A DNA stretch of 64,000 bases, from IMG/VR virus record IMGVR_UViG_3300012003_000002, positions 1 through 64,000 of that record, one strand, 5' to 3'. How positions within the stretch are numbered: the stretch's first letter is position 1; each line of letters begins with the position of its first letter. Shown one piece after another: positions 1-24,365 of this stretch. The notes below the pieces were generated by a model. The model was not told where the DNA came from. It ran no database searches and saw nothing but the letters and a program-made list of their open reading frames with translations. Origin of the DNA: a virus. Both the position numbers and the translations under genes were made by a program.

Positions 1-783
1 GGATATATAGGAAGAACTAAAAATTTTTTAAATAAACGATTAAATGGTCATCTATCTAAAGCTAAAACAAATAAAATAAAAACACATAAAGATAATTGGT
101 TATTATCTTTATCTTCAAAACCTGCAATAGAACAACTTACAACAGTAATGGGTTGGAAAGAAAGTCATATTTACGAACAAAATCTGATTAAAGAATATCT
201 TGAAAAAGGATATAATTTAACAAATTTAGATGATCGTGGTGAAGGAGAAGTTAATAAAATTATAAGTAAGGAACAAAAAATTAAAATTTCTAAAAAAGTT
301 AAAGAAATGCACGACAATAATCAACTTTCGTGCAATAGAAAAGCTGTAGATATTTATGATTTAAAAGGTAATTTTATAATTTCAAAAAGAAGTTATAAAG
401 AAGCATCTGAATTTATTGGAATTAGTCAAAAACAATTTCAATCTTCTATGCGAAGAAATGCTAAAAGAATTAAAAATTATCAGGTAGTTTTGAAAGATTC
501 ATTAAAACCTAATGAATGGAAACAACGAACAGGAGAATTAACTAAAAATTTTAAAAAGATTTATTTATATAATATTGAAACTAGTGAAATTATTGAATTT
601 GAAGCAATAAAAAGATTTAAAGAGTTTTTTAATACTGGGGCAAGTACGGTTAATTATTATTTAAATAGTAATAAATTGTATAAAAATACATTTTTAATTA
701 CCGATGCCCGTTTAAAATTGGATGAATTCAGGGAAACTCCAGAAGTGGACAATCCTGAGCTAAGTACTAATCTAAATGATTAG
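1..783 (+). CDS. Intron-encoded GIY-YIG homing endonuclease (5' end outside window)
   Basis: Frame 1 is open from base 1 (GYIGRTKNFLNKRLNGH...), giving YIG, catalytic Arg, Glu (IYEQ) and GYNLTN. C-terminal NUMOD1-like segments (KAVDIYDLKGNFI..SYKEASEFIGI). The ATG at 148 is internal. Confidence 0.88.
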   Translation, partial: GYIGRTKNFLNKRLNGHLSKAKTNKIKTHKDNWLLSLSSKPAIEQLTTVMGWKESHIYEQNLIKEYLEKGYNLTNLDDRGEGEVNKIISKEQKIKISKKVKEMHDNNQLSCNRKAVDIYDLKGNFIISKRSYKEASEFIGISQKQFQSSMRRNAKRIKNYQVVLKDSLKPNEWKQRTGELTKNFKKIYLYNIETSEIIEFEAIKRFKEFFNTGASTVNYYLNSNKLYKNTFLITDARLKLDEFRETPEVDNPELSTNLND

Positions 784-7396: not shown

Positions 7397-10300
7397 TTAA
7401 TTTTGTTTTCCAAATTCTAAACCATATCTTTGTTTATAATTAATACCTACTTGTGGTATAATTGGAATAAGTTTAGATAAATGTTTAGACATTTTATTTT
7501 GACCTTTAGAATTTTCATCTAAATATCCAAATACAGATTCACCTTTACCTGGAACTAAATTAATTGGTGTTGCAACATCATATATAAAATTAAGTCCATT
7601 TTGAATAAATCTAATACCTGCAACTGGATTTTGAATCATTCTAGTTGCTTCTATTGGATTTCTAAATTGAGCTAACTCTTGAGTTAATCTCCTATTGGTG
7701 TACATAGCAAACCATAATAATTTATTATCTTTATCATCTCCACCAGCAGCACCTAATAATAATCCAATAGAAGGTAATATTACCATTGTAAACATTATTT
7801 CTAAGGTAGCTTTTTTTAAATTAGCTTTTTCATATTCAGTAAGATTATCATAATTCATATACATTGTTTGTAACATCTGTAAATTAGGAACCCCTGTTTC
7901 TCTTAAAAATCTTATTAATGTTGTATATGTACCTTCAATATATTCTTTTTCAGCAGAATTATAAAATCTATCATCATCTGTTAAATCTGATTTCTTTTTG
8001 TAAGAAGTTGTAAATCCAGTATATCTATAAGCAGCTGCTACTAAAAAGAAATTCTTAAACATCATTACAGATTTACCCCACCAAGCCTTAGATATTTCAT
8101 TTTTATATTTAATATCATAAACTCCAAATAATTGAAATACTTTAGCTTTAATTAAAAGTTTAATTTGAGATTTACCACCTTCGTGATATTTAGTAGTTAA
8201 ATTAAATCCAGAATAAGCAACTTTAGAATTCATTTGCAATTGACCGTGTTCATCAAAATATAACATATCTGCTAATGAAGCACCTTTATCTTCTGTAGTA
8301 ATATTACCATCTTTATCTAAGTAATTATTATTTTCATCCATTGCTTTAATACCATCTAATATAGATTGTGTTAATATTGAATGCATCATATGTTCACCAG
8401 ATTCATTTATAAAATTACCTGTTTTTCTACTACCTAATTTTCTTATTATATTATTACGTAAAGCATCTTGTTCATTTTGACCAAGACCACCAAACACATC
8501 AAACATTTCAAGTAATTGATTAAAGTAAGAAGTTTTAACAGATCTACCCATATCTTTAAGTAAATTACCGTTCATCATTTCTTTATTGTATTTTAACTCT
8601 GCTTTAGCAAAAGTTTCAACATCAAATCTATGACCTCCTACAGCTTCAGTAAACACTTGAGTTAAACCATTTGCAATATTTACAGTACCAGATGCTAAAT
8701 TAAAAGTCATTGCTAAACCTGCAGCATATCCATTTAAAGCATTAGTTATTTTATTAATATCTGCAGAACCAAATGTTCCACCGTGAGTACTATAAATATC
8801 ATAAACATTACGTTCCATCATACCTACTAATTTCTTATAAGTATTACTTAACTCACCTTTAACTTCAATTTTACTTTTACCAGTATAATATGTATTACTT
8901 TTAGCAATATCTGTAACTAATAATAATTTAGGTTCAATTGCAGTTTTTTCTTTAAAATTTTGACCATTCCAATATTCATTTCTATACATTGTTTCTAAGT
9001 CTAAAGATTGTTCTTTAGGATCAATTTGACCTCTATAAGCTGTTTTAACACGTCTTATAATATCACCTTGACTATTTTTTTCTTCAGAACCAGAATCTAT
9101 ACCAATATCATCAGATTTAATTTTGGTTAAATCAGTCCATTTATCTTTAGTTAGACCTTTTACATCTGTTTCTAAAACTCTCTCTAAATCAGATTTACTT
9201 TTTGAAGGTAATTTGTGAAATTCAGCTCCCATTAAAGTAGTTACTAAAGAATCAAAACCTTCAATTTGATCGTTATCTTTATCTATTTTTTTATAACTAT
9301 CTAAAACTTCTTTTTCAATTCCAGTTAATTCTTTATTTAAAAATTTTGGATGAGGTATTGTTTTACCTTTTTCATTTTTAATAGTATTTTCTTTAAACCA
9401 AGCTTTATACATTTTATTCCTATTTTTAAATGTAGTAGATGTTTTAGAATCTTCTTCCACTTTAACATAAGATATAATATCCATTGAACCAGAATTATTT
9501 ATAAAATTATAAATTTCAGGATACATCTGAGATTTTTTAGAATCTTCTTTAGCATAATCATTTGAATTTTTAAAATCTTCAAAATCTTTATAATTACCTA
9601 CAGCTTTTGCAAAATCATTTTTACGTTCATCACTTAAACTATTAAAATTATTAAAAGTTTTGATTTGATCTATTTGAACTTTTATACCCGTATTAATACC
9701 ATTAACAGTAACTACAGCTATATCATTATCAATGAAATTATGTTCACCAGATTTACGTAAAGAGATAGTTTTCTTATCTTTTCTTAAAGAATCTAAATTA
9801 ATATCTTGAACTTGTAATTTTTTAAAACTATTTTCATAAGAATCTTCAATATCATTTAAAAGTTTAGTAAAAGATTCTTTAAATTTAATACTGTATTTAC
9901 CTTTTAAATATACTTGACCTTCAGAATCTTTTTCAATTAAATTTTTATTTAGTTCAGATAATTTTTTATTACCTTTTTCAGCAACAAATTTATCAAAAGT
10001 TTTACCCATTTGATGAATTTTACTAATAACTAAAGTTTTAACTTTATCAAAAGATTCGGCATAAATTTGATTTACAATTTGAATAGTTTTACTTTTAATA
10101 TTAAGAGGGTCTTCAAGTTTTTGAGACATCATTGTAATATCTTTAGATGGATCATTTAAAATCTTTTCAGCAGATGCTTTTAAATCAGCTTTATAATCAG
10201 CTAAATCTCTTGTTGCTAACATTTTAGATATATATTGATCTGCTGATAAACCTTGTTTATCTGATAATTGATTATATTCTTTAAGTAATTCATCACGTTG

Positions 10301-12175
10301 TTTAGTTTCAACCTCTGTATTATACATAGGATTACTAAAATCCTGTAATACTTGAGCTTTACTAATTGCTAAAAATTTACTTTCAATAGAATCATGTTTT
10401 TTAGATGCTTCAGATAAAAAATCTTTTAATTGTTTATAATCTTCTAATTCTTCTTCAGTTAATTCAAATTGTTTTAAATCAGCTTGACTCATTAATTCTT
10501 TAATTTCAGGAAGTAGATCATAAGCAGATAAATAATCTTTATATCTTTTAAGTAAATCATCCAATTTATCTTCATAAATATTTTTAGTTTCTAATAAATT
10601 ATCTAATAATGAATTTACATGATTAATAGTTTTATCAAAAGATTGAGCATATCCTATTACAGCTTTCCATTTTTGACTTTTTTCATATTTATCTAAAGTT
10701 TCTAATAATTCTTTATTACGAAGTATATGTTCTTCTTTAGAGGGTGTACTATTTTTATTATTAGATTTAATTGTACGATCTTGAATAGATTGAGTTTTTG
10801 TCTTAGCTTTATCTATAATATTAGCTAATTTAGATTGTAAACTACTATATTTAGAATCATCTTCAATTCTTTTTTCAAAAATTAAATCTTGAGAGTTAAG
10901 TCCTGTGTAATGTCTTTTATCAGATTCAACAAAATCTATAATTTTTTCTATTAATAAATCAGATTCTTTAGTTTTAGCTAAACCAATTTTTCTTCTTATA
11001 AAATTTTTTATAAGATTAATAAATTTTTTAAAATATGAAGTATTATTTTCTTTATCTAAATTTTTTAATTCTTGTCTAAATTCTTTATTTACATATATTT
11101 CAGCTACAAATTCAAGTTTATTAGTAAATCCATATTTCATTAAAGATTTTAATTTTTTTTCAAAATCTTCAATTATATCAGAATGGTCATTACCTGTTTT
11201 TTCAGATTCAGATTTTAAATTTTCAATAGTATTTTTCAAACTTGTTAAAGTTGAATCTAAACTTATTTTTTTATCTTTATAAAATTTAAAATATTTTTCA
11301 ACATTATCATTAAATTGATGTTCATCAAAACTTTGAGGATTTTTTAATGCTTCAATTGTTTGAGCATGAGATATTTCATGTAAAATCCCTCTAATAACTG
11401 TTTCTATATTACGAGTATTTATAATATCTCTACTTACTTGAATAGTATTTGTTTTAGTTTTAATATGCATTAATGCCGTTTTACTAAATTCTGATTTATC
11501 TACAATTTCAAATTTAGCTCCAGTTTTACCAACTAATCTTCTAGATTTTTCTAATAATTCTTTACCTATTGGTGATAAGTTTTTATAATTATTTAGAATA
11601 TTTTCAAGAATTTCATCTATTGTAAATTTACCTCGTTTATTATTAAATAATATACTATTATTTTGTTCTTCATATGGTCTGTTTCCAGATTCAATAGGAT
11701 CTATATCTTCTTCAACTAAACTTTCTTTAATATTTGATTCGTATTGAAATTTACTTATAGTTCTATCATTTACAGTATTATCTGGTCTAAATATATATCT
11801 AAAAGTACCATCTTCATTTAAAAATTTAAAATAGATTCCTTTTGGAGTAAAAATTCTATATTGTTGACCACTAAAAAGAGCATGTTCTTTATAATCACCA
11901 ATATCTTCTCTTCTACCCCTATATTCTTTTTCTTTATTAAGAATATCAGATTCTAATTCATTTTTTTTAGACCCTATAAGATCATTAAAATCTATTTTAT
12001 TTTCTAATTTATTATTATCTGTTTTAACTTCTTCAAATTGAATATTATTTTTATAATAACTATTAGGAACATTACCATTATATTCAGTCCATAGAACGTA
12101 AGCTTTATTTTCTCCTACATTCTTGACTAAATTCTTCCATGCAACTAATCGCTTATTCGGGCAAGATATACTCAT
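7397..12175 (-). CDS. Giant virion ejection protein (phi14:2 gp67-like) with zincin HEXXH domain and C-terminal hydrophobic helix
   Basis: 1592 aa downstream of the vRNAP; LHEISH...EFVAE; IMFTMVILPSIGLLLGAAGG; single Cys at residue 5. Confidence 0.8.
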   Translation of the reverse strand: MSISCPNKRLVAWKNLVKNVGENKAYVLWTEYNGNVPNSYYKNNIQFEEVKTDNNKLENKIDFNDLIGSKKNELESDILNKEKEYRGRREDIGDYKEHALFSGQQYRIFTPKGIYFKFLNEDGTFRYIFRPDNTVNDRTISKFQYESNIKESLVEEDIDPIESGNRPYEEQNNSILFNNKRGKFTIDEILENILNNYKNLSPIGKELLEKSRRLVGKTGAKFEIVDKSEFSKTALMHIKTKTNTIQVSRDIINTRNIETVIRGILHEISHAQTIEALKNPQSFDEHQFNDNVEKYFKFYKDKKISLDSTLTSLKNTIENLKSESEKTGNDHSDIIEDFEKKLKSLMKYGFTNKLEFVAEIYVNKEFRQELKNLDKENNTSYFKKFINLIKNFIRRKIGLAKTKESDLLIEKIIDFVESDKRHYTGLNSQDLIFEKRIEDDSKYSSLQSKLANIIDKAKTKTQSIQDRTIKSNNKNSTPSKEEHILRNKELLETLDKYEKSQKWKAVIGYAQSFDKTINHVNSLLDNLLETKNIYEDKLDDLLKRYKDYLSAYDLLPEIKELMSQADLKQFELTEEELEDYKQLKDFLSEASKKHDSIESKFLAISKAQVLQDFSNPMYNTEVETKQRDELLKEYNQLSDKQGLSADQYISKMLATRDLADYKADLKASAEKILNDPSKDITMMSQKLEDPLNIKSKTIQIVNQIYAESFDKVKTLVISKIHQMGKTFDKFVAEKGNKKLSELNKNLIEKDSEGQVYLKGKYSIKFKESFTKLLNDIEDSYENSFKKLQVQDINLDSLRKDKKTISLRKSGEHNFIDNDIAVVTVNGINTGIKVQIDQIKTFNNFNSLSDERKNDFAKAVGNYKDFEDFKNSNDYAKEDSKKSQMYPEIYNFINNSGSMDIISYVKVEEDSKTSTTFKNRNKMYKAWFKENTIKNEKGKTIPHPKFLNKELTGIEKEVLDSYKKIDKDNDQIEGFDSLVTTLMGAEFHKLPSKSKSDLERVLETDVKGLTKDKWTDLTKIKSDDIGIDSGSEEKNSQGDIIRRVKTAYRGQIDPKEQSLDLETMYRNEYWNGQNFKEKTAIEPKLLLVTDIAKSNTYYTGKSKIEVKGELSNTYKKLVGMMERNVYDIYSTHGGTFGSADINKITNALNGYAAGLAMTFNLASGTVNIANGLTQVFTEAVGGHRFDVETFAKAELKYNKEMMNGNLLKDMGRSVKTSYFNQLLEMFDVFGGLGQNEQDALRNNIIRKLGSRKTGNFINESGEHMMHSILTQSILDGIKAMDENNNYLDKDGNITTEDKGASLADMLYFDEHGQLQMNSKVAYSGFNLTTKYHEGGKSQIKLLIKAKVFQLFGVYDIKYKNEISKAWWGKSVMMFKNFFLVAAAYRYTGFTTSYKKKSDLTDDDRFYNSAEKEYIEGTYTTLIRFLRETGVPNLQMLQTMYMNYDNLTEYEKANLKKATLEIMFTMVILPSIGLLLGAAGGDDKDNKLLWFAMYTNRRLTQELAQFRNPIEATRMIQNPVAGIRFIQNGLNFIYDVATPINLVPGKGESVFGYLDENSKGQNKMSKHLSKLIPIIPQVGINYKQRYGLEFGKQN

Positions 12176-12176
12176 A

Positions 12177-12680
12177 TTAATCTAATAAATTTTTACCAAT
12201 ATAATTATCAATAACTAACATATCGGTACTTAGTTTATAAATATCTAAATTAGTAATAGATTTACCAATTTCTTCTTGTTGTTCACTACAATATCTTAAA
12301 GCAAGTTGATATAAGACATGATTACCTTCTTTAAGAGCTAAAGTAGCTAAATCTTCACATTGTTTAGTAACAATTAATTCATGATCATATGCAGCTTCTA
12401 ATACATCAAGTAAATCATCTACCTCCATTTCTGGAGAAGGAAGTGATTGTAAACATGGTGTAAGACCATAATCTAATAAATAACTTTTTGAAAATCCCGC
12501 ATGAACTAATTCTTCATTTGAATAATTTTTAAATAATTTTGCAAAATTTAAATAACCTTTATTATTTAACCATAAAGATAATTGTTCATATATTCTTGAA
12601 GAATGCTCTTCTTGTTGTATTCTATAATTTAAAGTTTCTACAACTTTATCATTTAATAATTGTTTTCTTTGATCTTCCAT
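12177..12680 (-). CDS. Non-heme ferritin (FtnA-like)
   Basis: 167 aa with ferroxidase ligand pattern QEE..S..Y, EExxH (EELVH), HE, EQQEE. Confidence 0.88.
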   Translation of the reverse strand: MEDQRKQLLNDKVVETLNYRIQQEEHSSRIYEQLSLWLNNKGYLNFAKLFKNYSNEELVHAGFSKSYLLDYGLTPCLQSLPSPEMEVDDLLDVLEAAYDHELIVTKQCEDLATLALKEGNHVLYQLALRYCSEQQEEIGKSITNLDIYKLSTDMLVIDNYIGKNLLD

Positions 12681-15088
12681 TATTTACATATTTTTTTTAA
12701 TAATTCTCCTATTTCATCTTCTGATTTATTACTTAAATCTTCAATACTATTTATTCCCAATTCATTAAATTTATTTAACATTAATCCTTGTTCAAACATT
12801 TCTTTTAAATTATTCATTACTTTAGATTCTTGAATATTATCAATTATTGAAGTAGTATTAACATTTTTAATTTCATTATCAACTTTTTTAACATTATCAT
12901 CTTTAACTTCATTTGAAATAACTTCATTATGATATTCAGCATCTCTAGATATTACAGCTAAATCATTTAATATCTTTTGACCTCTTACAGTTGCTAAATT
13001 ACCAATAGCTTCTGAAGATGGTTTTAAAATAATACCTTCTCTACTATAACCATAAATACGATTACCTTTCTTATCTCTTCTATTAAGAGGTTGAACGTCA
13101 ACATATTTACCTTCAGTATTTTCAATAAATCTAGTATAAACACCTTTACCTTCACCTGTATAACCTAATAATTTATAATAACTTATACCAGAATCTGTAG
13201 ATTTAACTTTAAAATAACTTTGTTTACCAAGTTTTTTCATTATAAAACCATTATTTCTAATACTAATACCATGTGGAAATTCTACAGTTTTAACAAGTGT
13301 ATCAATTTGACCTTCAGTTACATTTTTAACATATTTAGTATTATCTATATTTGATAAATAAAATTGATCAATCATATTAGAATCATTAAAACCTTGATTA
13401 TTATAATTATCATTAGTATCAATAATATATCTATTTATGTTATTTCTCATCATCCATTGAGATGGTATATGAGTAAAAAACTGATTAGGATTCATTGAAA
13501 ACCCTGATGTTAAAAATGAATATTTAATTAATTTTTCAGCAAACTCAGGTTCTTTATCTAGTAAGTCTGAAAATGAATTAGTTAAAGATTCTTCAATTTC
13601 TGGACTTTTAATTCTATTATTTAATGTAATATAATCAATTTTACCAGCTCCAGGTTTAACAACTAAAGTATCTACAATAGAATATAATTCTTTATTATTT
13701 TTTTGAAATTCTTTAAATTGATTTACAAAATTTGTAAGTAAATCTGTTTTATCAGCAATTGATATATTTAAAGGTTGAAATCCTGACATTAAATAACTGT
13801 AAGCGTGTTTTTCTAATTCATCACCTAATTCATTATCTAAAAGTTTATCACCACTTAAATCATATGCTATTTCATTAAATGAATTTTGTATAATAGAATT
13901 TGCAGATAAAAATAATTTAGGATTAGCTTTAACAATTTTATCAACACCTAAAATTACATTATTATAATATCTCAAAGCCATTGATTTACTACCATTAGGA
14001 TTTTGAAATATAGTTTGAAAACCTTTTAAAACAATATTTTTATCATTAGGATTTTTATCAAACTTTTCTTCATTTTCACGTATAGAATCTACTAAATTTT
14101 TAGATATTTGCAAATCTGTAATATTCTTACCATTACCATTAACCATATATTTAGTAGCATTAACAACTTTCTGTAAAACTTTAGAACCATCTTGAAAATA
14201 TAGAAATGAATATAATGTATTCATTCTGTGTTCAATAGAACCTTTTTTACTAATTTGATCTCTTAAAGATTCTAATGAATTATTTAAAATATTTCTTTTA
14301 TTATAATCTTTATAAGTATCTTTACCAAATTCTTGTTCAATAAAAGCATCTAAAGTACTTAAACTTTGGTTATCTGATTTCTCGTATTGTTGACTAAATT
14401 TAACATAATCTTGAATTACAGTTTGTGATAGTAAAGCATTAACATAAAATGGATGTACACCATATCTTAATAATAAGTTACCTGTATTAGTAGTCATTGT
14501 TGTCCAACCACCTTCTGTAATATATGGATCTTTTGCAATATCTACAAATGCATTTAATACAGCAGATAATGAATTACTAATTTTAATAGAAGTTAATTCC
14601 TTAACTTGTTCATCTGTAAATTTTAAAACTTTTTTATAATATTTAATATCTTCATTTGATAAATCATTAGAATATTCAGAATCTAATTTATTATTTGAAT
14701 TAGGTACACTAAAGTTAGTTAATGACTGTTTAGACATGCTACCTAATACATAAGACATTAAAGCGTTTGCTTGTTGTCCTACACCAGCTTGACCAGCTAA
14801 AAATCCATATCTAGTATCAATATTTTTTATTGGATTAAATAAGCTTAAATTAGTTATTGCAGATTGTTTATGAATACTCCTAATATCATTCTTCATAAAA
14901 TCAAAGTCAATAGGTGTCATAACCTCTGGAATAACTTTTTCATTTAATAAAACAGATTTGTATAATTCAATTAATCTATTTTGTAAACCTTCTTTAGTTT
15001 TATTTTCAGAATTATAATTAATATAATTTAAATTATTAGATTCTTTATCATAATTAAATGAAGGAAACATTATATACATTTTATCAAT
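12680..15088 (-). CDS. Virion RNA polymerase, exon 2
   Basis: Begins IDKMY, completing DFD|IDK; AFVDIAKDPY motif; ends KKICK. Confidence 0.9.
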   Translation of the reverse strand: MDKMYIMFPSFNYDKESNNLNYINYNSENKTKEGLQNRLIELYKSVLLNEKVIPEVMTPIDFDFMKNDIRSIHKQSAITNLSLFNPIKNIDTRYGFLAGQAGVGQQANALMSYVLGSMSKQSLTNFSVPNSNNKLDSEYSNDLSNEDIKYYKKVLKFTDEQVKELTSIKISNSLSAVLNAFVDIAKDPYITEGGWTTMTTNTGNLLLRYGVHPFYVNALLSQTVIQDYVKFSQQYEKSDNQSLSTLDAFIEQEFGKDTYKDYNKRNILNNSLESLRDQISKKGSIEHRMNTLYSFLYFQDGSKVLQKVVNATKYMVNGNGKNITDLQISKNLVDSIRENEEKFDKNPNDKNIVLKGFQTIFQNPNGSKSMALRYYNNVILGVDKIVKANPKLFLSANSIIQNSFNEIAYDLSGDKLLDNELGDELEKHAYSYLMSGFQPLNISIADKTDLLTNFVNQFKEFQKNNKELYSIVDTLVVKPGAGKIDYITLNNRIKSPEIEESLTNSFSDLLDKEPEFAEKLIKYSFLTSGFSMNPNQFFTHIPSQWMMRNNINRYIIDTNDNYNNQGFNDSNMIDQFYLSNIDNTKYVKNVTEGQIDTLVKTVEFPHGISIRNNGFIMKKLGKQSYFKVKSTDSGISYYKLLGYTGEGKGVYTRFIENTEGKYVDVQPLNRRDKKGNRIYGYSREGIILKPSSEAIGNLATVRGQKILNDLAVISRDAEYHNEVISNEVKDDNVKKVDNEIKNVNTTSIIDNIQESKVMNNLKEMFEQGLMLNKFNELGINSIEDLSNKSEDEIGELLKKICK

Positions 15089-15342
15089 CATTACTACCTT
15101 ATATTTCTATAAGGATTAGACTATATCATAATTATTACAACTGTGTAACAATCCTCTCCGCTTCCACCTGATTAGGTGTACTCTACTTGGTTATTCAGTT
15201 AAACTAAGTTTTAACTTATCCGTTCGATAGTCGTTGAACGTTCCTTAATAAATTAAGGCTTCGCTGCTGATTGTCTTCACTATTATGTGGTCAGAGTTTC
15301 CAGCAATTCAAAGAGTTTTACTTCGACTGTGATTAAATGTTA
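15089..15342 (-). mobile_element. ORF-less group I intron (254 nt) in the vRNAP catalytic motif
   Basis: P1: exon ACTTCGAT pairs with IGS GTCGAAGT, with U.G at the splice site. P10 CATTTAATCA vs exon TGATAAAATG. P3 CTCTTTG/CGGAGAG; P4 TGCTGG/TCAGCA; P7 GACTA/TAGTC; P9 CCTTAT/ATAAGG; terminal G at 15089. Confidence 0.95.
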
Positions 15343-18300
15343 ATCGAAGTCACTACCCGTCTTGGTAGTGATACCTGTATAGGCTACAATAGTATCTCCA
15401 TTTTCTTCAGGAAGGATACCTACAATCTGTAAAGCATCATTAGAAGATAAACCTTGATTAGGAATTCTATATCCTATAATATTGTTAAGAATTTTATCAT
15501 CAATTATACCTTTAACAAATTCACCATTTTCATTTGTATAACCAAATAATTCTTTATCAGATTTTGTAGCATAATCAGGAATATATTTTGCAATAAATGA
15601 ACCCGATATTAATACACCACCTGGTCTAACAATTTTTTTACCATTTTTAGATAATATAAATTCACCTTTACCGTCTTTTAAAAATTGTGGTTCGTGTGTA
15701 GTAGCTAATGCATTTGGACTCCAAATTACATTCTGAGCTTCAGCATTTTCACTATTTAAACCATAATTAGACATTTGTATAAATGAACCACCATTAGTTT
15801 GAATCTTTAAAATACGTTTAGTCATAATAGCACCAAATATATTCTGTAACTTCTTTTGAACTTGTGGTAATCCGTAAATAGAAACTTCAGATTCTAAAGC
15901 TCTAATTACATTTCTAGAACCATTTCTAGATTTTAATTCAGAAATTATTGATTTGTAAAAAGTATCTAAGTTATTAATTTTACCATTAGAGTCAACTCCA
16001 AATTCTTTTAATACACCATTATAACCTAAGTCAGATAAATCTCCTACAACATTTGCAATATTTTCAATCATTTGATCACCAGTAAATAATTCTTCACCAT
16101 TTACTTCAAATTCATTGTCTCTATTAAAAGCTAAACCTTGAAATATATTTTTTTGCAATTGAGAACCTAATTCAGTATCCTTCATTGTCTTAGTTGGTAA
16201 GTCTTGTTGTAACTTCCAACCATTAGAAGGTAATATCATTGGATTTAAGACAAAATCTTCTAAAAGAGTACCATTATCATCATAAGTACGAGTTGGTTTA
16301 TTAGAACCCACTTTAATTGCATCAAATGTTAATAATTCATCAACTTTTGAATTAACCATTTTATTGTAAAGTTTTTCTAAATCATTACCTTTACGTAATC
16401 TTGGTGTTAAAACAGCTTGTGAATATTTTAAAAACACAGGTTGTCCATTTATTAATTGACCATATTGACCTTTAATTGGTTGCGCAGCTTTTTTCAATTC
16501 TTTTTCTGTAAAAGGATCTGTGTTAATACCTTCCATTTTATCATAAGTAGATTGGTATATCATATTCCATTTACCTGTACTTTGAATTAAATCTTTCCAT
16601 CGTTTTGGAGTTATCCAAGCTTGAGCATCTGCAGAATTAATATTTGTATAATATTTCGCAATCTTTTCACCAACCAATTCTTCAATATCTGAATGAAACG
16701 GGCTAGCAATATTTATACTTTCAATAACTGCAATTGTAAAATTTTTAGTTTCTTCGGTAAGTCTTTGATAATTACCATCTCCATATGTCCAAGGAATACG
16801 TTTTTTATAATCAACTCCATTTTTATAATAAGCTACATCTCCAGCAAACATTTTAGAATATTCAACTTGTGCGATTAAAGAGTTAATGTAATAATCGGTA
16901 GCTACTTTAAGTTCTTGGTCTTGACCATATTTATCCCACACTTTAGAATTGATTCCTAAATTCTTATAAGAAGTATCAGCGTTTTGTTCAAATAATTTAA
17001 TTTCTACTAATTTAGACATTGTATCATTAATATCTTGAACTAATGCTTGTTTAATATAACGTTTAATATCTGCTTCAAATTCAGAACCTTTTAAAGTTTC
17101 TAAATAAGCATTACCATTTTCATATATTAAATGAAAATTACTACCAAAACTTTTAGCAACATTAGCAATTTTATTAGGACTTAAAGATGGAAATAACTGT
17201 GATTTAAAAGCATTTCCATCATCTAAATGATAATAAGTAGTTAATTTATCTTTATTATTTTCATCAACCATAAAAGCATTCTCAACTCTCATTCTTCTAT
17301 ATTCAGAATCAAAGTATTCAAATATCACATCTAAAGCTTCTTCATTAAAATCTATACCAAATTCACCACCATATCTTGCATTTGTGGATATATTTCCACC
17401 CATAGATATTTCATACTGAGTACCTTTATCTGCTGGTGGAGCTGTTTTACTATATGTCAAACCTCCATTAATGAATGCTATTGTTTTATTAACATCATCT
17501 AAAATGTATTGATTTTCATTTATTTCTTTAACATTTGCAGATTCTGTAGTATTTTCTTTTTCTTCTTGAAATACATTAAAACTACCTAAACTAATAGCAT
17601 CGATTCTTTTATTAGATTCTTCAATTCTAGCTGCTTCTTGAGCTTCTGATGAAGTTAATTCATCAACTTCATAAGTATCTCCAAATGCTAATAGATATTT
17701 CATTTTATAAGAACCTGAATTGTATTCAGATGCTTGATAATTATTTAATAATATATTTCTATCTTTTTTCCAAGCTTCTATTGTATTAGATAAATATGAT
17801 GGATATGAAAATGTCCACTTTTGTTTATCACCTGTAAATACAGAAAAATCTGCATTTTCAGCCATATAGAATACTTCAGCTCTAGCTAAATTTTTAAATA
17901 TAGGATTACTACTAAAAGCTTCTTCTAAATTCTTAACTTTATTATTTTCAATATCTAAAAAGAAATATTTTAAATCTGTTATAGTTTTATTAAATATTTT
18001 ATCAGATAACTTAGAATCATTTCCAATTAATTTTAAATTATCTAAATAATGATTAAATCCTTTTACTGTTGATTCAATACCTAAATCTCTTAATAATTGA
18101 ACAAATTTGTTTATAGCATCAGGTTGAGAAATATTAAATTTATCAAGTTTATCAGAATAAGATTTTAATATTTGTTTATCTTGATCACTAATTATTAATT
18201 TATCACCATCAACAGTAACGAAATCAGTTTTAAAATTACTTCCCCAAACATATAGAACATCATTTTCTTTCTTAGCAGATTGTGCAGCATTAATATTAGA

Positions 18301-19383
18301 CCATTCTATATTACCATCTTTACCTCTTTTAAATTTAGATGTATTTAAATTACCTTGATGTAAATTAAACGCCGATGAAAATTCATTTTTAATTTCTTCA
18401 GATAATTCTGGATCAGATAACATTCTATAAAGTTCTTTAAAATAAGGTTTTTTACCTACAAATTTTAAAACTTCAGATTTTAATAATTCAAATCTATCTT
18501 CTTGAATACCATCTTTTTCTAATGCTACAATGTTTGATAATTGACTTAATAAATCATTATGAATTACATTAAAATCAATATATACTTTATCATTTAAAAA
18601 ATAGTCTGAATTTTCAACATCTTCAATTAATGATAGTCTAAATTTAATATTAGCTGTAACACCTTCTTTACTACTTTTTTCATTTGATTGAGTATTATAT
18701 GAAGGGTCTTTCTGATTTTCTATAATTTCAATTTCAGATAATTCAGAATCTTCATCAGAATTTAAATTATCTTTAGTTTTAATTTTATTTTGTTCAAAAA
18801 CAGTTTTAACATTATCAACAATTTCATCTAAATTTTCTTTTAAAGAGGTTTCTAATTTATCAGCTACATCTTCAAAATAAACATCTCCTGAAGTTCTTAA
18901 AAAATCAATTCTTTCTCTTAATTTAGAAATAACTGCCATTTTAATTGTAGTAGTTTCTTTTTCTAAATCAATATTGTTAAAATCAACTTTTAAATGATTT
19001 TTAAAATAATCATTAATTAAAACTTTGGTAAGTTGTTGAATTTCTTGATATTCAAATAAAGAATTTAAACTTTTCTTATTCTCAACAAGAACCACTTTGT
19101 TATAATCTTTATCTAAATAATACCAATCACCTGTTTTATCATTTTGATATAACATAGGTTCTCCATTATCTTCAGTTCTGTCAATATAAGATAAATTATC
19201 ATTCAAATTCTCGTAACTATTTTCATAAGCTTTCTTCCAATCACCAAACTCTTTAATGAATTTATCATCTTTAGCAAAAGAAGAATGAAGAGTTTTTGAC
19301 AACTCCTCATCTCCATTAAATGCTGTTAATATTTTATTATACAGTTTTGATTCTGTACCGTTTACTATAAACTTACAACTCAT
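15343..19383 (-). CDS. Virion RNA polymerase (crAss/phi14:2 gp66-like two-barrel RNAP), exon 1; spliced product 2149 aa
   Basis: GYRIPNQGLSS...TGSDFD immediately before the intron; ADAQAWIT, KYSQ, AIKVG, LQQD motifs. Confidence 0.92.
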
Positions 19384-19385
19384 AA

Positions 19386-22300
19386 TTATTTACATTTTTT
19401 TACGTATTCTTCTCCGTATTTATCTTTAAGACTTTCTAATTGTTTAAGATTAGCTTCAGTAGCAGTACCTTTTTCAACTTTATCTTTCAACATAGTTATT
19501 GTTTTAGTATCTTTCTGGCCTTCTAAACCTTTAGGTTCTTTAAATACTTGATTTTGTTTATCCATTTGCTGTTTATTTTCAACTGTATTTGGAATATCTG
19601 AAGATGATACAAATTTATTAGAATCGCTTAAATCTTCTATTACAGTTGTTGATTCTGGCAAAGATACGGAATTATTTTCAATATTCCTAGTATTATTTGA
19701 TTTATTTTCTAAAGCTTTTAATTCTGCATTATATTTAGCATTAATGATATTTTCAAAATTATCTATTATTTCATAAGATTTAAAACTTGGTAATTCCTCA
19801 TTAGTTTCAAAATTAAATTTAATAAAACTATTTGTATCTGTTTTTGAAAAACCTTTACTAAATGTATATTTAGCATTAAAATATTTTTTTAAATATTCTT
19901 GAAACTCGTTTAAAACGTCATCTTTTATTTCAATATTATTTTTATCATTATAAATATACTTAAAGGAAATTGTAATATTAGCTTTTGGATTTTTACTATT
20001 TAATAATAAATCAGTTTGTTCTATTCCTGTATTAATATTTCCAGATTCTCCAACTTTACCACTATGATAATGTTTCTCATTAATAAATTTTTGAATTAAT
20101 TCTTTATTTGAAATTTTTTTAAATTCATCAACAGCTTCTTGTCTTCTTTTTTTAATATCAGCAATTTTAGATTTATTATCTACTTTCTTATTATCACCAA
20201 AATCTAAACCTTCAAAATTATTATTAGCTATTTCAACACCTGCATCAGATACTTTAACTTTACCTTTATTTTCTATTTCAAGTTTTTTTTCTGTAAATAG
20301 AGGTTTATATAAATCCTGGTCTTTATTATTTAAACTTTTAAAACCTTGATATAATTCATCAATAGTTCTAACACCTTTAAGTCTATCTTCAATTTCTGTA
20401 ATAGATTTAGTTGGTTTAGATTTTTTATTAACTTTTTCAGAACCTTTAGTTGTAACTGTGGGACTTATAAATAAATTAGTATAACCTTGAAAAGCTGGTT
20501 GATTAATAACTGCGTTAGTAGATAATATTTTACTTTCTACTAAATATTTAATATAATTAGCAGAATTAGAAGATAAATTAGTTCTTTGATTATCTTCAGC
20601 AGATTTAGGTCTAATCTTAATTTGATGTCTTTTTTGAGTATGTAAGAAATGCATAATCTCTTCTTTTAAAGCATCAATTTCACCAGAATGTGCAGATTTA
20701 TCACCAAAGTATAAAATACCTTCTGTAACATTAATTCTAGATTTAACTTTATCAGATTCATAAACTAATAAATCTATAATTTCACCTAATTTAATATCCT
20801 TTTGTTTAGCAGGTGTTGTAATTACTTTTAATTGTTCACCAAATATATTTTGGATTATAGATAATAATTCAGGACTAATTTCAGATAATGTTGTATTAGA
20901 ACCTTTATCTTGTGTTAAAATTTCTTTATATATTTCAAATAAACCTTCAGATTCTTCAATAGATAATTTACTAATATTAAGTTTTAAAGGAAATTGAGAT
21001 ATACCGTCTGCTTGTGGAATCATTAAATAGATTTCTCCAGCAGCATAAGCTTTAGTTCTATCGTTAACTTTAGTAAACTTGTTTTGAAAGTTTTCAAATT
21101 TACCAGTTAACACATTTTCTAATTGACCGTGAATATTTACAAAATAAGTATTCTCTTTAATATACTTTAAATCTGTAACACCAGCTAAATTTAAAAGACT
21201 ATTTTCAGCAGTTGGTGATTCAACTTGTAACACACCTTTATATTGACCTGTTATAGTAGAATTCATACTTTCAATAGGAACACCAGTAATAAGATTTGCA
21301 ATTATTGATCTTCTTAACATTTCTGTTTCAGGATTCATTTCACCATTAACACGTCTTGTTTCAATAGGTAAATAAGCTCCCTCAGTTAACTTAATATTAA
21401 TTGGAAGGTAATCTATCAAAAGATTAACATCTTTTAAATTACCAGCTTTAAATTGCTTTAGAGCTTCTTTAACGTTATCACTTACTGCACCAGGATTTTC
21501 ATTAATTTCAAAACTAACTTCTGTTCCTACTTTATTAACTGGATTTCTTTCAAACGATAAACCTTTTGGAAATTGTTTTTCAATCCAATCTAAAACTTTA
21601 TTTTTTACTCTATCATAACTAATAAGTTTAACACCTTTACCTTCTGTAGGATTTATTTTTTTAGCTTCTTCTAAATCTCCTGGTGTTTCATTTTCTCCTG
21701 TAACAGGAGTTAAATCATCAGATATATCAGAACCTTCTGTTGAATGAGTTTCTGTTGTAGAAGTGCCATTAAAATCATTATCATCTTCTTTAGCATTAGC
21801 TATAGTATCAGCTTCTTCAGCATCTTTAACTGCTTTTAATTCAGCTTTTTTATCAATTACTTTTTGTTTAAGTGTTTGATATGTTTCTGGATTTAATTTA
21901 TAATTATTATCTAATTTTGTTTTTGATTTTGGTGAACTTGGTTCAATATGTTTAGAATTTAAATCATTTAAATCTTCAAGATTATCAATATTTTTAATTT
22001 TATCAGTTAATATACCAGCTTTAAACTCATCAAATGTTTTTTCAATAGTATTTTTAATAGGTGAATTATTAATAAAATCTTTATTCTCATTACGAACATT
22101 ATCAACTTCTTCTATATTATCATAATTTATATTATCAAGTTTAGATGACATATCTAAAAGTTTTGCAGTATCTTTTGATTTTTTAATATCTGAAGTTACA
22201 ATTTTAGATAATATAGGTTTATCAGTTAACATATTATAATGTTCTTTCAATTCATCATGTAAATCTCCTAAATTTTTATTTTCATTATTTAAATGTTTTA

Positions 22301-24365
22301 TTCTATCAATACTTTCATTATTATCATGCCATACTGAATTTTCTAATGAAGTTATTTCATTATTATTTCTTTCAATTTGAGTTTTTACAAATAATTGTCT
22401 AGCTTTTGTATCATATAATACTTTTTTAACTGTATTTAATGTATTTAAAGCATTTTCATGGTCTTCTGATTTTATATCTAAAGCATCAGGTAATGAAATA
22501 TTTTGATTATTTACACTATTATATGTTTTTCTTAATTCTTTAACATATTTTTTTAATGATTCAGCTTTTTCCGCTGGAGTAATTTCTTCTCCAGTTATAA
22601 GATTATTATCATTTTTCCTATTAGGATCTGCTTCTTCTTTTTTCTTTTGAGCATCAATAAAATCATTAACATATTCAAAACCACCTTGTTTATCTAAAAA
22701 ATCATGAGCTAATCCTGCAATAGCTTCATGATCTGCCCAATTTGCTATTAAATGATCGTTATTAGTACTTCCTAACATTTTATCATCAAAATTAGATTTT
22801 TGTCCAATTTGACCAACAATAGCATTTATAACCTTTTGTTTATCTAATATAGGTTTACCAGTTTGTTTATCTATTTTAGGAGTTATACCATCCGCTTCTT
22901 TAACGTTATAATCTGTTAAAACATTTGAATGATTTAAATTAGCAGTTTCTATTAAATTTTGAAGTTGTTTAATTTTATCATGTTCAGAGGTTTGTTGACC
23001 ACTAGCAATACTTCTATAATGATTAAATGAATGAAATGCACTTTCAAGTATTCCTTGAACAGTTCCTAATAACATATTATTACCCATATTTGGGTCTTCA
23101 TTCCAACCATCTACATATGTTTTTACAAAATCTTTAAAACCATTGTCTTTAAGTTTTCCTTCTCCCCATAATTCATTAGTTCTACCTATTGCAACTTGAG
23201 TTGTTTCATTTAATCCTCCTTCTAAACCTGTTAAAAGAGATTTACCTACTGCTTTTCCAAATTTTTCTAAACCTGTTTCTGCTATTAAAGTTATTGGATT
23301 TAAATTACTATCAACAGCTTTTTCAAATAAATTTTTAGCTCCATTAAAAGAACTATACATTTGTTTTGCAGCTATAAAAGCTGTAGGAATAGCTGTTAAT
23401 CCTGCTTGCCAAAATGCACTATCTGATGCAGCTTTAGCTTTTTCATCAATTTGTTCAGGAGATAAATGTAAAAATTGACCATCTCCTTTAGTATAATAAT
23501 CTCTAACAGCATCTTCTGCTGGTTTAGCAGTAATTGCCATTTGAGGTATTGCTCCTCCTAAAACTTGTTCTACTCCTTTTAAACCATCTACAAATTTTGT
23601 TGCAACAGGATTTAATCCTAATTCAGATTTACCAGCAGCAGTAGCTGTATATCTTTTGAGAAATTGAAATGATTTATTAACATCTGCTGCACCAAAACCA
23701 GCTTTTTCTGCTAATCCTGTTGCATCTAATGCCTCACCTACACCTGCACCAACAAGTCTACTTAATCCAAAACCTTCACCAACAACAGCTCCAGGCATAA
23801 ACATTCCCGCAACTAATGCCGCTCTATCTATACCTTCTTTTAATAACCATTGTGCCCTACCTTTACCATATAAGTTTTCTAACCAAGTATTATTTTCAGC
23901 TTCTCTAGTACCATATAAAGGCATTACTTTTTCTGCCCACTTATTCATATCTTCACCTGCTTTTGCAACAGGATTATCCCATATTTTTGAAGCATCCCAT
24001 GTAGCTAATGCTGGTAATACAGCTCCTAATTGTCCAACAGTAGTTGTTAAAAATCCAGCAGTTTTAACTCCAAAATTACCTAATGCATTACCTAATCTAT
24101 CTAATGTTGGTTGTACTTGACCTCTATGTTCATTAAGATCTGCTTGAACATTATTCCCTATTTCAGCATCCCAATTTAAAGATTTATCATAATCAGAATT
24201 ACCATATCCTGTACCAAAACCACGAACAATACCTCCTGAATTACTAAATGTTTTTTGTAATTCTGTTTGTGGTGCTTTATTTTTACTAGGATCTCTTACA
24301 GGTATTAACATATCTGGATCAACATGAGGTGTTCTTACTGGTATTTTGTTATCTTCTTCTTCCAT
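19386..24365 (-). CDS. Giant virion ejection protein (phi14:2 gp65-like)
   Basis: 1659 aa; Gly/Ala-rich hydrophobic N-terminal third; immediately upstream of vRNAP; only Cys is penultimate (KKCK). Confidence 0.78.
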   Translation of the reverse strand: MEEEDNKIPVRTPHVDPDMLIPVRDPSKNKAPQTELQKTFSNSGGIVRGFGTGYGNSDYDKSLNWDAEIGNNVQADLNEHRGQVQPTLDRLGNALGNFGVKTAGFLTTTVGQLGAVLPALATWDASKIWDNPVAKAGEDMNKWAEKVMPLYGTREAENNTWLENLYGKGRAQWLLKEGIDRAALVAGMFMPGAVVGEGFGLSRLVGAGVGEALDATGLAEKAGFGAADVNKSFQFLKRYTATAAGKSELGLNPVATKFVDGLKGVEQVLGGAIPQMAITAKPAEDAVRDYYTKGDGQFLHLSPEQIDEKAKAASDSAFWQAGLTAIPTAFIAAKQMYSSFNGAKNLFEKAVDSNLNPITLIAETGLEKFGKAVGKSLLTGLEGGLNETTQVAIGRTNELWGEGKLKDNGFKDFVKTYVDGWNEDPNMGNNMLLGTVQGILESAFHSFNHYRSIASGQQTSEHDKIKQLQNLIETANLNHSNVLTDYNVKEADGITPKIDKQTGKPILDKQKVINAIVGQIGQKSNFDDKMLGSTNNDHLIANWADHEAIAGLAHDFLDKQGGFEYVNDFIDAQKKKEEADPNRKNDNNLITGEEITPAEKAESLKKYVKELRKTYNSVNNQNISLPDALDIKSEDHENALNTLNTVKKVLYDTKARQLFVKTQIERNNNEITSLENSVWHDNNESIDRIKHLNNENKNLGDLHDELKEHYNMLTDKPILSKIVTSDIKKSKDTAKLLDMSSKLDNINYDNIEEVDNVRNENKDFINNSPIKNTIEKTFDEFKAGILTDKIKNIDNLEDLNDLNSKHIEPSSPKSKTKLDNNYKLNPETYQTLKQKVIDKKAELKAVKDAEEADTIANAKEDDNDFNGTSTTETHSTEGSDISDDLTPVTGENETPGDLEEAKKINPTEGKGVKLISYDRVKNKVLDWIEKQFPKGLSFERNPVNKVGTEVSFEINENPGAVSDNVKEALKQFKAGNLKDVNLLIDYLPINIKLTEGAYLPIETRRVNGEMNPETEMLRRSIIANLITGVPIESMNSTITGQYKGVLQVESPTAENSLLNLAGVTDLKYIKENTYFVNIHGQLENVLTGKFENFQNKFTKVNDRTKAYAAGEIYLMIPQADGISQFPLKLNISKLSIEESEGLFEIYKEILTQDKGSNTTLSEISPELLSIIQNIFGEQLKVITTPAKQKDIKLGEIIDLLVYESDKVKSRINVTEGILYFGDKSAHSGEIDALKEEIMHFLHTQKRHQIKIRPKSAEDNQRTNLSSNSANYIKYLVESKILSTNAVINQPAFQGYTNLFISPTVTTKGSEKVNKKSKPTKSITEIEDRLKGVRTIDELYQGFKSLNNKDQDLYKPLFTEKKLEIENKGKVKVSDAGVEIANNNFEGLDFGDNKKVDNKSKIADIKKRRQEAVDEFKKISNKELIQKFINEKHYHSGKVGESGNINTGIEQTDLLLNSKNPKANITISFKYIYNDKNNIEIKDDVLNEFQEYLKKYFNAKYTFSKGFSKTDTNSFIKFNFETNEELPSFKSYEIIDNFENIINAKYNAELKALENKSNNTRNIENNSVSLPESTTVIEDLSDSNKFVSSSDIPNTVENKQQMDKQNQVFKEPKGLEGQKDTKTITMLKDKVEKGTATEANLKQLESLKDKYGEEYVKKCK
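19659..19690 (-). promoter_or_regulatory. Bacteroidota-type promoter inside the upstream gene, about 270 nt before the vRNAP start
   Basis: TAGG-N19-TATCTTTG, same layout as the promoters at 28488, 35554 and 63453. Confidence 0.6.

Follow-up and report, generated by a model that had tools for sequence, protein, structure and literature searches.

Cysteines facing each other at the ends of giant cargo proteins suggest a head-to-tail disulfide link in crassviruses

The virus record IMGVR_UViG_3300012003_000002 of IMG/VR, whose positions 1 to 64,000 were analysed here as a single stretch of 64,000 nucleotides (nt; the window), encodes three giant cargo proteins, termed A, RNAP (a virion RNA polymerase spliced from two exons) and C. 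These are most likely packed into the particle; their orthologues have been found by mass spectrometry in the virions of two cultured crassviruses, Cellulophaga phage phi14:2 and crAss001. Together the three proteins contain just four cysteines (Cys) in 5,400 residues, and each of these lies at a terminus facing the next protein of the set: at residue -2 of A (negative numbers being counted from the C-terminus), at residues 3 and -2 of RNAP and at residue 5 of C. Pairs of this kind are conserved among relatives, are missing where the genes are fused and are newly present where one gene is split. On these comparisons we propose, with a probability of roughly 0.65, that A, RNAP and C are joined head to tail by one disulfide per junction, in place of a peptide bond.

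The scarcity of Cys and its placement are each far from expectation. At the rate found in the other open reading frames (ORFs) of the window, 0.86%, some 46 Cys are expected in 5,400 residues, and the probability of four or fewer is 1.6e-15; the probability of four Cys falling one each in the four facing end zones of five residues is about 2e-11. These values (P about 1e-11 to 1e-15) rule out chance or composition as the source of the pattern. No Cys is present at the outer end of A, at that of C or in the two smaller cargo proteins, of 596 and 761 amino acids (aa), encoded in the same block. A first-pass annotation of the window, which had drawn attention to the pattern, proved right on each of these points, including every codon coordinate and residue, and its statement that ejected proteins of the N4 type are free of Cys agrees with the literature (PMC11445570). 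It erred in implying that the RNAP and C genes are adjacent, as a ferritin-like gene of 167 aa with three Cys lies between them.

Relatives were gathered by scanning IMG/VR with an alignment of the RNAP core, which returned 80 loci at 28–89% identity, 75 of them non-redundant. Junctions were scored between large separate ORFs, a pair meaning that each side has a Cys no more than 12 residues from its end, and in the 75 non-redundant environmental loci both sides carry a Cys at 127 of 130 junctions. The three exceptions are locus L035, where the tail Cys is at -32, L053, where a gene is broken, and L077, where the upstream ORF is a Cys-free cargo protein and not a member of the chain. In L053 (2186-7575) the A gene is divided into ORFs of 1556 and 184 aa, and it is intact (1796 aa) in the near-identical L051; the break probably reflects a frameshift, or an artefact of sequencing or assembly and not biology. 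Of 129 head Cys, 83 are at position 3, and of 127 tail Cys, 111 are at -1 to -3, the positions across relatives lying mostly between -1 and -7 for tails and between 3 and 8 for heads. Cys is the only invariant column among 51 aligned A tails, in which mean column identity is 12%, and also the only one among 51 aligned RNAP N-termini. Within the 380,521 residues of the environmental chain proteins there are 19 internal Cys (0.005%) and 265 terminal ones.

The pattern extends to cultured phages and to the gut. In phi14:2, at 31% identity, the sole Cys of g067 is its last residue, g066 has Cys at 3 and at residue 2179 of 2180, and the sole Cys of g065 is at 3. Nine gut crassviruses from the Steigviridae, Intestiviridae and Suoliviridae keep the pair at 11 of 11 junctions, and their chain proteins hold 56 internal Cys in 54,564 residues (0.10%), about twenty times the environmental frequency. 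The gut loci of this comparison are L006–L008, L087–L090 and L092–L094.

These data bear on the notion that the Cys codons have no function at the protein level and are by-products of nucleotide signals at the junctions (translational coupling, a promoter or a terminator) or of chance, which we regard as scarcely credible. The 10-mer TGTAAATAAT does occur at both C-terminal junctions of the window, where it is present in 8 copies against 1.7 expected, but only two of these eight are at gene ends (12679-12688 and 19385-19394, covering Cys, Lys and stop of RNAP and A respectively). Among relatives the codons and residues flanking the Cys differ widely, as do the positions of the Cys themselves, and the gap between partner genes ranges from -13 to 1212 nt. 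Furthermore, gp47 of crAss001 keeps its Cys at -3 although it is encoded on the strand opposite gp50-gp49, no longer beside the RNAP gene and with no partner gene downstream. The signal is thus placed at the level of protein and not of nucleotides; the window by itself already excludes chance (P about 1e-11), and the comparative data contradict this explanation as a whole. The other six copies of the 10-mer are elsewhere in the window.

Gene fusions and splits show how the pairs follow gene architecture. A and RNAP are fused in L075, L076, L077 and L080, which have no pair at the joint and retain only the C-terminal Cys facing the head of C, and the same pattern is found in five Suoliviridae (cr1_1, cr56_1, cr52_1, cr118_1 and cr114_1); the two proteins are also fused in L086, which runs off its contig. 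RNAP and C are fused in L044, L047 and L081, which retain only the N-terminal Cys facing the tail of A, a single-Cys pattern shared by two Intestiviridae (cr107_1 and cr271_1). At the fused joint of L047, a divergent linker of about 117 aa replaces the tail and head regions of separate relatives at similar length. When changes between the fused and separate states were counted on a FastTree phylogeny of the RNAP core (85 rows), at least four were needed at the A–RNAP junction and at least two at the RNAP–C junction, so that the fusion pattern is not one inherited accident. RNAPs that are divided by an intron, in the window and in L003, L010, L013 and L041, lack Cys where the exons meet, as would follow if the spliced mRNA gives a single chain. 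Conversely, L078 (7616-17643) has a true split of RNAP into two genes, which encode 1536 and 661 aa and have a Dps-like ORF of about 115 aa between them; in alignments the 661-aa product corresponds to the C-terminal portion of other RNAPs. The joint created by this split carries a Cys pair of its own at -2 and 4, and all joints of the resulting four-protein chain are paired. What the comparison says is that a Cys pair would be needed exactly where the peptide bond is missing. Tabulating Cys in homologues, a check proposed with the first-pass annotation, thus finds C- and N-terminal Cys together at junctions and neither at the fused joints, and the suggestion that the retained Cys pair across junctions is strongly backed by the pairs in about 85 relatives and their loss at fusions and intron joints.

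The same cases allow other arrangements of the four Cys to be judged. Each terminal Cys might act alone, forming homodimers of A, C or RNAP or attaching the protein to the portal, the tail or a host component, so that the facing of the ends would be incidental. Since each Cys is nearly always present, the dependence of one on another can be judged only from the fusions and splits, and there both members of the fused junction are gone together at every fusion while the other pair stays, and both members arise together at the split in L078. Were the Cys paired in any way other than across the junctions, the fused forms should contain Cys without partners, and we consider solitary action of this sort very improbable. 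A single metal cluster formed by the Cys of all four ends was rejected, as fusions lose exactly one pair and keep the other. The idea that the ends are relics of polyprotein cleavage was also rejected, there being no Cys at the joint of fused forms, and chemistry resembling inteins or native chemical ligation is unlikely, the head Cys lying at positions 3 to 8 and never at position 1. Fusions, splits and conservation together effectively rule out chance, a nucleotide signal, a four-Cys metal site, a cleavage relic and pairings away from the junctions.

Under the disulfide proposal, A Cys1658 would bond to RNAP Cys3 and RNAP Cys2148 to C Cys5. At each junction the C-terminal tail of one protein, short and helical with the Cys at its end, would meet a small N-terminal head of the form M-x(1-6)-Cys; the two would probably dock first, the bond closing once the particle meets oxidising conditions. 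The product would be a linear string of 5,400 residues, with Cys within about 7 residues of the chain ends, in which the disulfide would do the job of the peptide bond of gene-fused phages. With the Cys so near the chain ends, the linked product would be unbranched, which suits a narrow tail channel, and internal Cys would have been purged because stray cross-links would branch or knot the thread. The linkage would hold the three proteins at 1:1:1 in the capsid, could allow them to leave through the tail as one thread, and would be undone by reduction in the host. We infer the disulfide chemistry from a bond resolved by cryo-electron microscopy (cryo-EM) between gp27 and gp26 of Anabaena phage A-4L (A4), discussed below, and from the structural disulfides present in the tail of crAss001 virions (PMC10172136).

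The same head-to-tail bond might instead be a static staple within an ordered inner-capsid body (a pre-ejectosome), with no threading, no ordered exit and no redox gating. The A4 structure lends this some weight, in that its linked gp27–gp26 pairs make up the outer ring of a pentameric assembly located above the portal, and the authors call the bond stabilising (PMC12002296). We nonetheless consider it unlikely: a staple leaves unexplained both the confinement of the Cys to within a few residues of the chain ends and its clean replacement by a peptide bond in at least six lineages, and ordered cargo density is not resolved in crAss001 capsids (PMC10172136). Alternatively, the end segments could dock without a covalent bond and the Cys could enter into another pairwise chemistry, such as bridging a metal ion or forming a Cys-Lys (NOS) bridge. 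Lys often follows the Cys (CK at both ends in the window), and a ferritin-like, iron-binding gene or a short insert occupies the junction in the window and about 15 relatives. Two thiolates by themselves would bind a metal poorly, however, and the neighbouring residues include no conserved His, Asp or additional Cys; nor is the Lys conserved (tails ..ICGF and ..NPC, CPNK and CIN heads), the ferritin-like gene is not found in most relatives, and the bond in the A4 structure is a plain disulfide. Chemistry of this other kind is therefore, in our judgement, quite improbable.

Several observations weigh against the disulfide chain. Sequence data cannot tell a disulfide from other pairwise Cys chemistry, and the crAss001 paper, which includes mass spectrometry of reduced and untreated virions, reports nothing on cargo cross-links. 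In a few tails the Cys lies deeper, at -9 in crAss001 gp50, at -12 in L051 and at the -32 of L035, and in the window the ferritin-like gene separates the RNAP and C partner genes. Neither thioredoxin nor glutaredoxin is encoded in the phage genome (97.5 kb, 97% complete); an Erv1-type oxidase model has no match in it, and none in 14 control genomes either. The gut habitat is anoxic and reducing, and disulfides may not form there spontaneously. That gut lineages keep the pairs despite this speaks against simple air oxidation. In favour of the proposal, on the other hand, the internal Cys frequencies, 0.005% in environmental and 0.10% in gut proteins, would fit oxidation driving selection against stray Cys.

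Structural prediction gives weak support to docking at the first junction. In the co-fold check named by the first-pass annotation, the A tail (100 aa) and the RNAP head (450 aa) together scored an ipSAE of 0.48, where the best of three controls scored 0.00. The same mark is passed by 58 of the 80 solved complexes used for calibration and also by 2 of the 110 mismatched pairs, a score of 0.60 or below is that of only 7 of the 80 solved complexes and of both passing mismatches, and the calibration counts hold only roughly for a run made, as this one was, on custom alignments. The runs share at least 53% of contacts, with a partner pLDDT of at least 59. The AF2 model of the N-terminal 450 aa of RNAP matches 6vr4_A at Z 11.9 (root-mean-square deviation 13.1 Å, 375 residues aligned, model 2..450 against chain 2..462), and residues 1–10 have a pLDDT of 75. 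As the structure of phi14:2 gp66 (PDB 6VR4) is itself modelled from residue 2, the Cys3 region belongs to the folded N-terminal domain.

The segments that bear the Cys are small modules. The last 45 aa of the window's RNAP are 71–87% identical to those of L003, L005 and L041, and the body just upstream 30–50%; the closest relative, L009 (84% identity over RNAP exon 2), has a different tail and lacks the tail module of the window. The head of C, about 45 residues long, is common to 14 otherwise divergent proteins in which M1, C5, L16 and A25 are invariant. AF2 models it with an extended start and two short helices (residues 1–40, pLDDT 76–90), followed by a disordered linker, and a search of its profile against PDB sequences gave nothing below E 0.01. 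The CPNK head is on C in the window and on RNAP in L082–84, and the CIN..WQ..NG head is on C in many loci and on both RNAP parts in L078. Exchange of modules is reported here from such hand-checked cases only; single-linkage clustering of tails and heads by short BLAST proved too crude, one head cluster taking most of the sequences.

The ferritin-like ORF at the RNAP–C junction matches PF00210 at 66.8 bits against a cut-off of 24.5 (E 2.5e-18, residues 15–138), and its start overlaps the RNAP stop (TAATG). Proteins of this kind are 65–80% identical to each other, and the set recurs in no fewer than four separate clades of the RNAP tree. Tail, ferritin-like gene and head are all common to L003, L005, L013 and L041 at an identity above that of the flanks and are absent from the closest relative, and at least four gains or losses are needed on the tree; the Cys tail, the gene and the Cys head look like one mobile cassette. 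About 15 further loci have an insert of 350–550 nt at the same junction, with ORFs of 160–167 aa in several and, in L078, the Dps-like ORF. The ferritin-like protein might be selfish cargo, might assist with iron or redox chemistry, or might be a component of the virion. In L002 (16505-22673), on a contig shared with L009, genes of 781, 500 and 440 aa (with 7, 2 and 7 Cys) lie between RNAP and C, and the RNAP tail (..LLIKCIGL) and C head (MSCKDKQK) are both unlike those of the window.

A bolder extension of the proposal, which we put forward tentatively and hold to be rather doubtful as a whole, is that the paired ends form a modular, horizontally exchangeable Cys clasp, sometimes travelling with a ferritin-like gene, and that the whole injected set, RNAP included, is stored and exits as one linear thread of more than 0.6 MDa, cut by reduction in the cytoplasm. 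If true, the clasp would let giant injected proteins be split into genes or joined at will.

The features of the window are listed in Table 1. Its cargo block (7397-28449) is co-oriented throughout on the minus strand and is transcribed in the order 761-aa CARG1 protein, 596-aa protein, A (1659 aa), the RNAP ORFs (1347 and 803 aa), the 167-aa ORF and C (1592 aa).

Table 1. Positions of the cargo genes, their terminal cysteine codons and associated elements in the window.
Feature	Position	Strand	Remarks
Two Cys-free cargo proteins, 596 aa and 761 aa	24372..28449	-	upstream of A; outside the Cys chain
Protein A	19386..24365	-	1659 aa; orthologue of phi14:2 g067 and crAss001 gp47; g067 match E 2e-23; sole Cys 1658
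Cys codon TGT, A tail	19392..19394	-	second-last residue, ..KKCK, then stop
Virion RNAP exon 1	15343..19383	-	residues 1-1347, ends ..GSDFD; 31% identity to phi14:2 g066
Cys codon TGT, RNAP head	19375..19377	-	residue 3, MSCK; sole Cys of exon 1
Group I intron	15089..15342	-	interrupts the catalytic motif between DFD and ID; no Cys at exon junction
Virion RNAP exon 2	12680..15088	-	residues 1348-2149 plus stop
RNAP tail module	12683..12817	-	last 45 aa, ends ..ELLKKICK
Cys codon TGT, RNAP tail	12686..12688	-	second-last residue, ..KICK, then stop; sole Cys of exon 2
Ferritin-like gene	12177..12680	-	167 aa with three Cys, all internal; occupies the RNAP–C junction exactly; Pfam PF00210
Protein C	7397..12175	-	1592 aa; orthologue of phi14:2 g065 and crAss001 gp49; sole Cys 5
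C head module	12041..12175	-	first 45 aa, MSISCPNK..W..LV..G..KA..W
Cys codon TGC, C head	12161..12163	-	residue 5, MSISCP

The closest cultured phage is phi14:2 (Crassvirales, Steigviridae). By tblastn its g066 matches RNAP exon 1 over 100% of the exon at 31% identity (E 2e-148), g065 matches C at E 3e-78, crAss001 gp49 being matched as well, and the 596-aa and 761-aa proteins are similar to g068 and g069 respectively; the latter ORF is also a member of Pfam PF25725, crAss_CARG1 (E 1.7e-16). An HExxH motif in C (HEISH, residues 266–270; 11366-11380, minus strand) recurs as HExxH in the four nearest homologues of C in the alignment (L005, L003, L041 and L022) and fits the zincin-like protease domain proposed for phi14:2 gp65. 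On the same strand as the cargo block, a 1341-aa ORF matches phrog_28748, a virion structural protein.

The interruption of the RNAP gene was identified as a group I intron by a local scan, in which 15097..15374 matches Rfam RF00028 over the full model (1–253) at 85.1 bits, against a gathering score of 50 (E 2e-22); a scan of the whole window at the gathering threshold missed it. The exon joint was set by comparison with the unsplit relative L002 (88% identity in the RNAP core), which reads ..GSDFDIDKMY.. without interruption. Splicing joins ..GSDFD to IDKMY.. and restores the catalytic DFDID at residue 1345, giving a protein of 2149 aa with Cys at 3 and 2148. Introns stand at the same site in L003, L010, L013 and L041, each with an inner ORF of 214–217 aa that is possibly a homing endonuclease.

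No phages are more abundant in the human gut than the crassviruses, and the cargo, with its giant RNAP and companion proteins, was not resolved in the crAss001 atlas. A conserved tether would give a testable rule for the stoichiometry of the cargo, the order of its exit and its avoidance of Cys, and would explain how genes can be fused, split and invaded by introns or cassettes without loss of function. The cultured phages phi14:2 and crAss001 carry the same pattern as the window, and a tether would turn what is a structural detail in A4 into a general principle of protein ejection.

Among known systems, the nearest are the cultured crassviruses themselves. The proteins gp67-gp66-gp65 of phi14:2 are orthologous, in the same gene order and with the same terminal Cys pattern, and gp47-gp50-gp49 of crAss001 are orthologous with the same terminal Cys pattern; the window differs from both in the group I intron of its RNAP and the ferritin-like gene in its RNAP–C junction. 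Drobysheva (preprint), Bayfield 2023 and a 2023 review do not mention these Cys or a link between the three proteins, and a full-text literature search yielded no crassvirus paper on terminal Cys or on cross-linking of the cargo. The first-pass annotation had left open whether its idea was new. It is not wholly unreported in kind, given the A4 disulfide; for crassviruses we found no precedent.

The Schitoviridae resemble the crassviruses in having a giant virion RNAP with co-ejected proteins and strong suppression of Cys. For their ejection proteins (N4 gp50-52 and DEV gp71-73) this suppression has been attributed to the oxidising periplasm that they cross (PMC11445570). There, however, Cys is wholly absent (0.00075% in gp71 homologues) and no terminal pairs exist, whereas in crassviruses internal suppression is just as strong (0.005%) and one Cys is kept at each facing end; complete absence of Cys is likewise not what the window has, its four terminal Cys being retained and conserved.

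In A4, cryo-EM resolved a disulfide from Cys1715 of gp27 to Cys5 of gp26, with the C-terminal helix of gp27 lying in a cleft of gp26 (PNAS 2025; PMC12002296). As the A-4L genome shows, the two proteins, of 1717 and 1114 aa and encoded by neighbouring genes, contain no other Cys. The likeness reaches the positions of the Cys, gp27 ending in ..NPCQF (-3) and gp26 beginning MSKHC (5) where the window has -2 facing 3 and -2 facing 5, and the A4 end motifs resemble crassvirus tails (..NPC) and heads (MSKxC). The A4 system differs in that it has a single junction, lacks an RNA polymerase and is built on a podophage core that is T7-like and fivefold symmetric, and its bond was reported as a structural detail, without being presented as a conserved rule. 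When A-4L gp26-gp29 were compared with every chain protein by blastp, no match had an E value below 0.39, and our claim is that the crassvirus chain would work like A4, not that it is a member of the A4 family. Crassviruses, by comparison, have two junctions, or more in some, in all three families sampled, with exchangeable end modules and a pattern that tracks fusion and fission. The A4 bond, then, is known, and what would be new in the crassviruses is a link of this class at several junctions, with the RNAP in the chain, conservation in every sampled family, co-variation with fusion and fission, and ends that can be exchanged.

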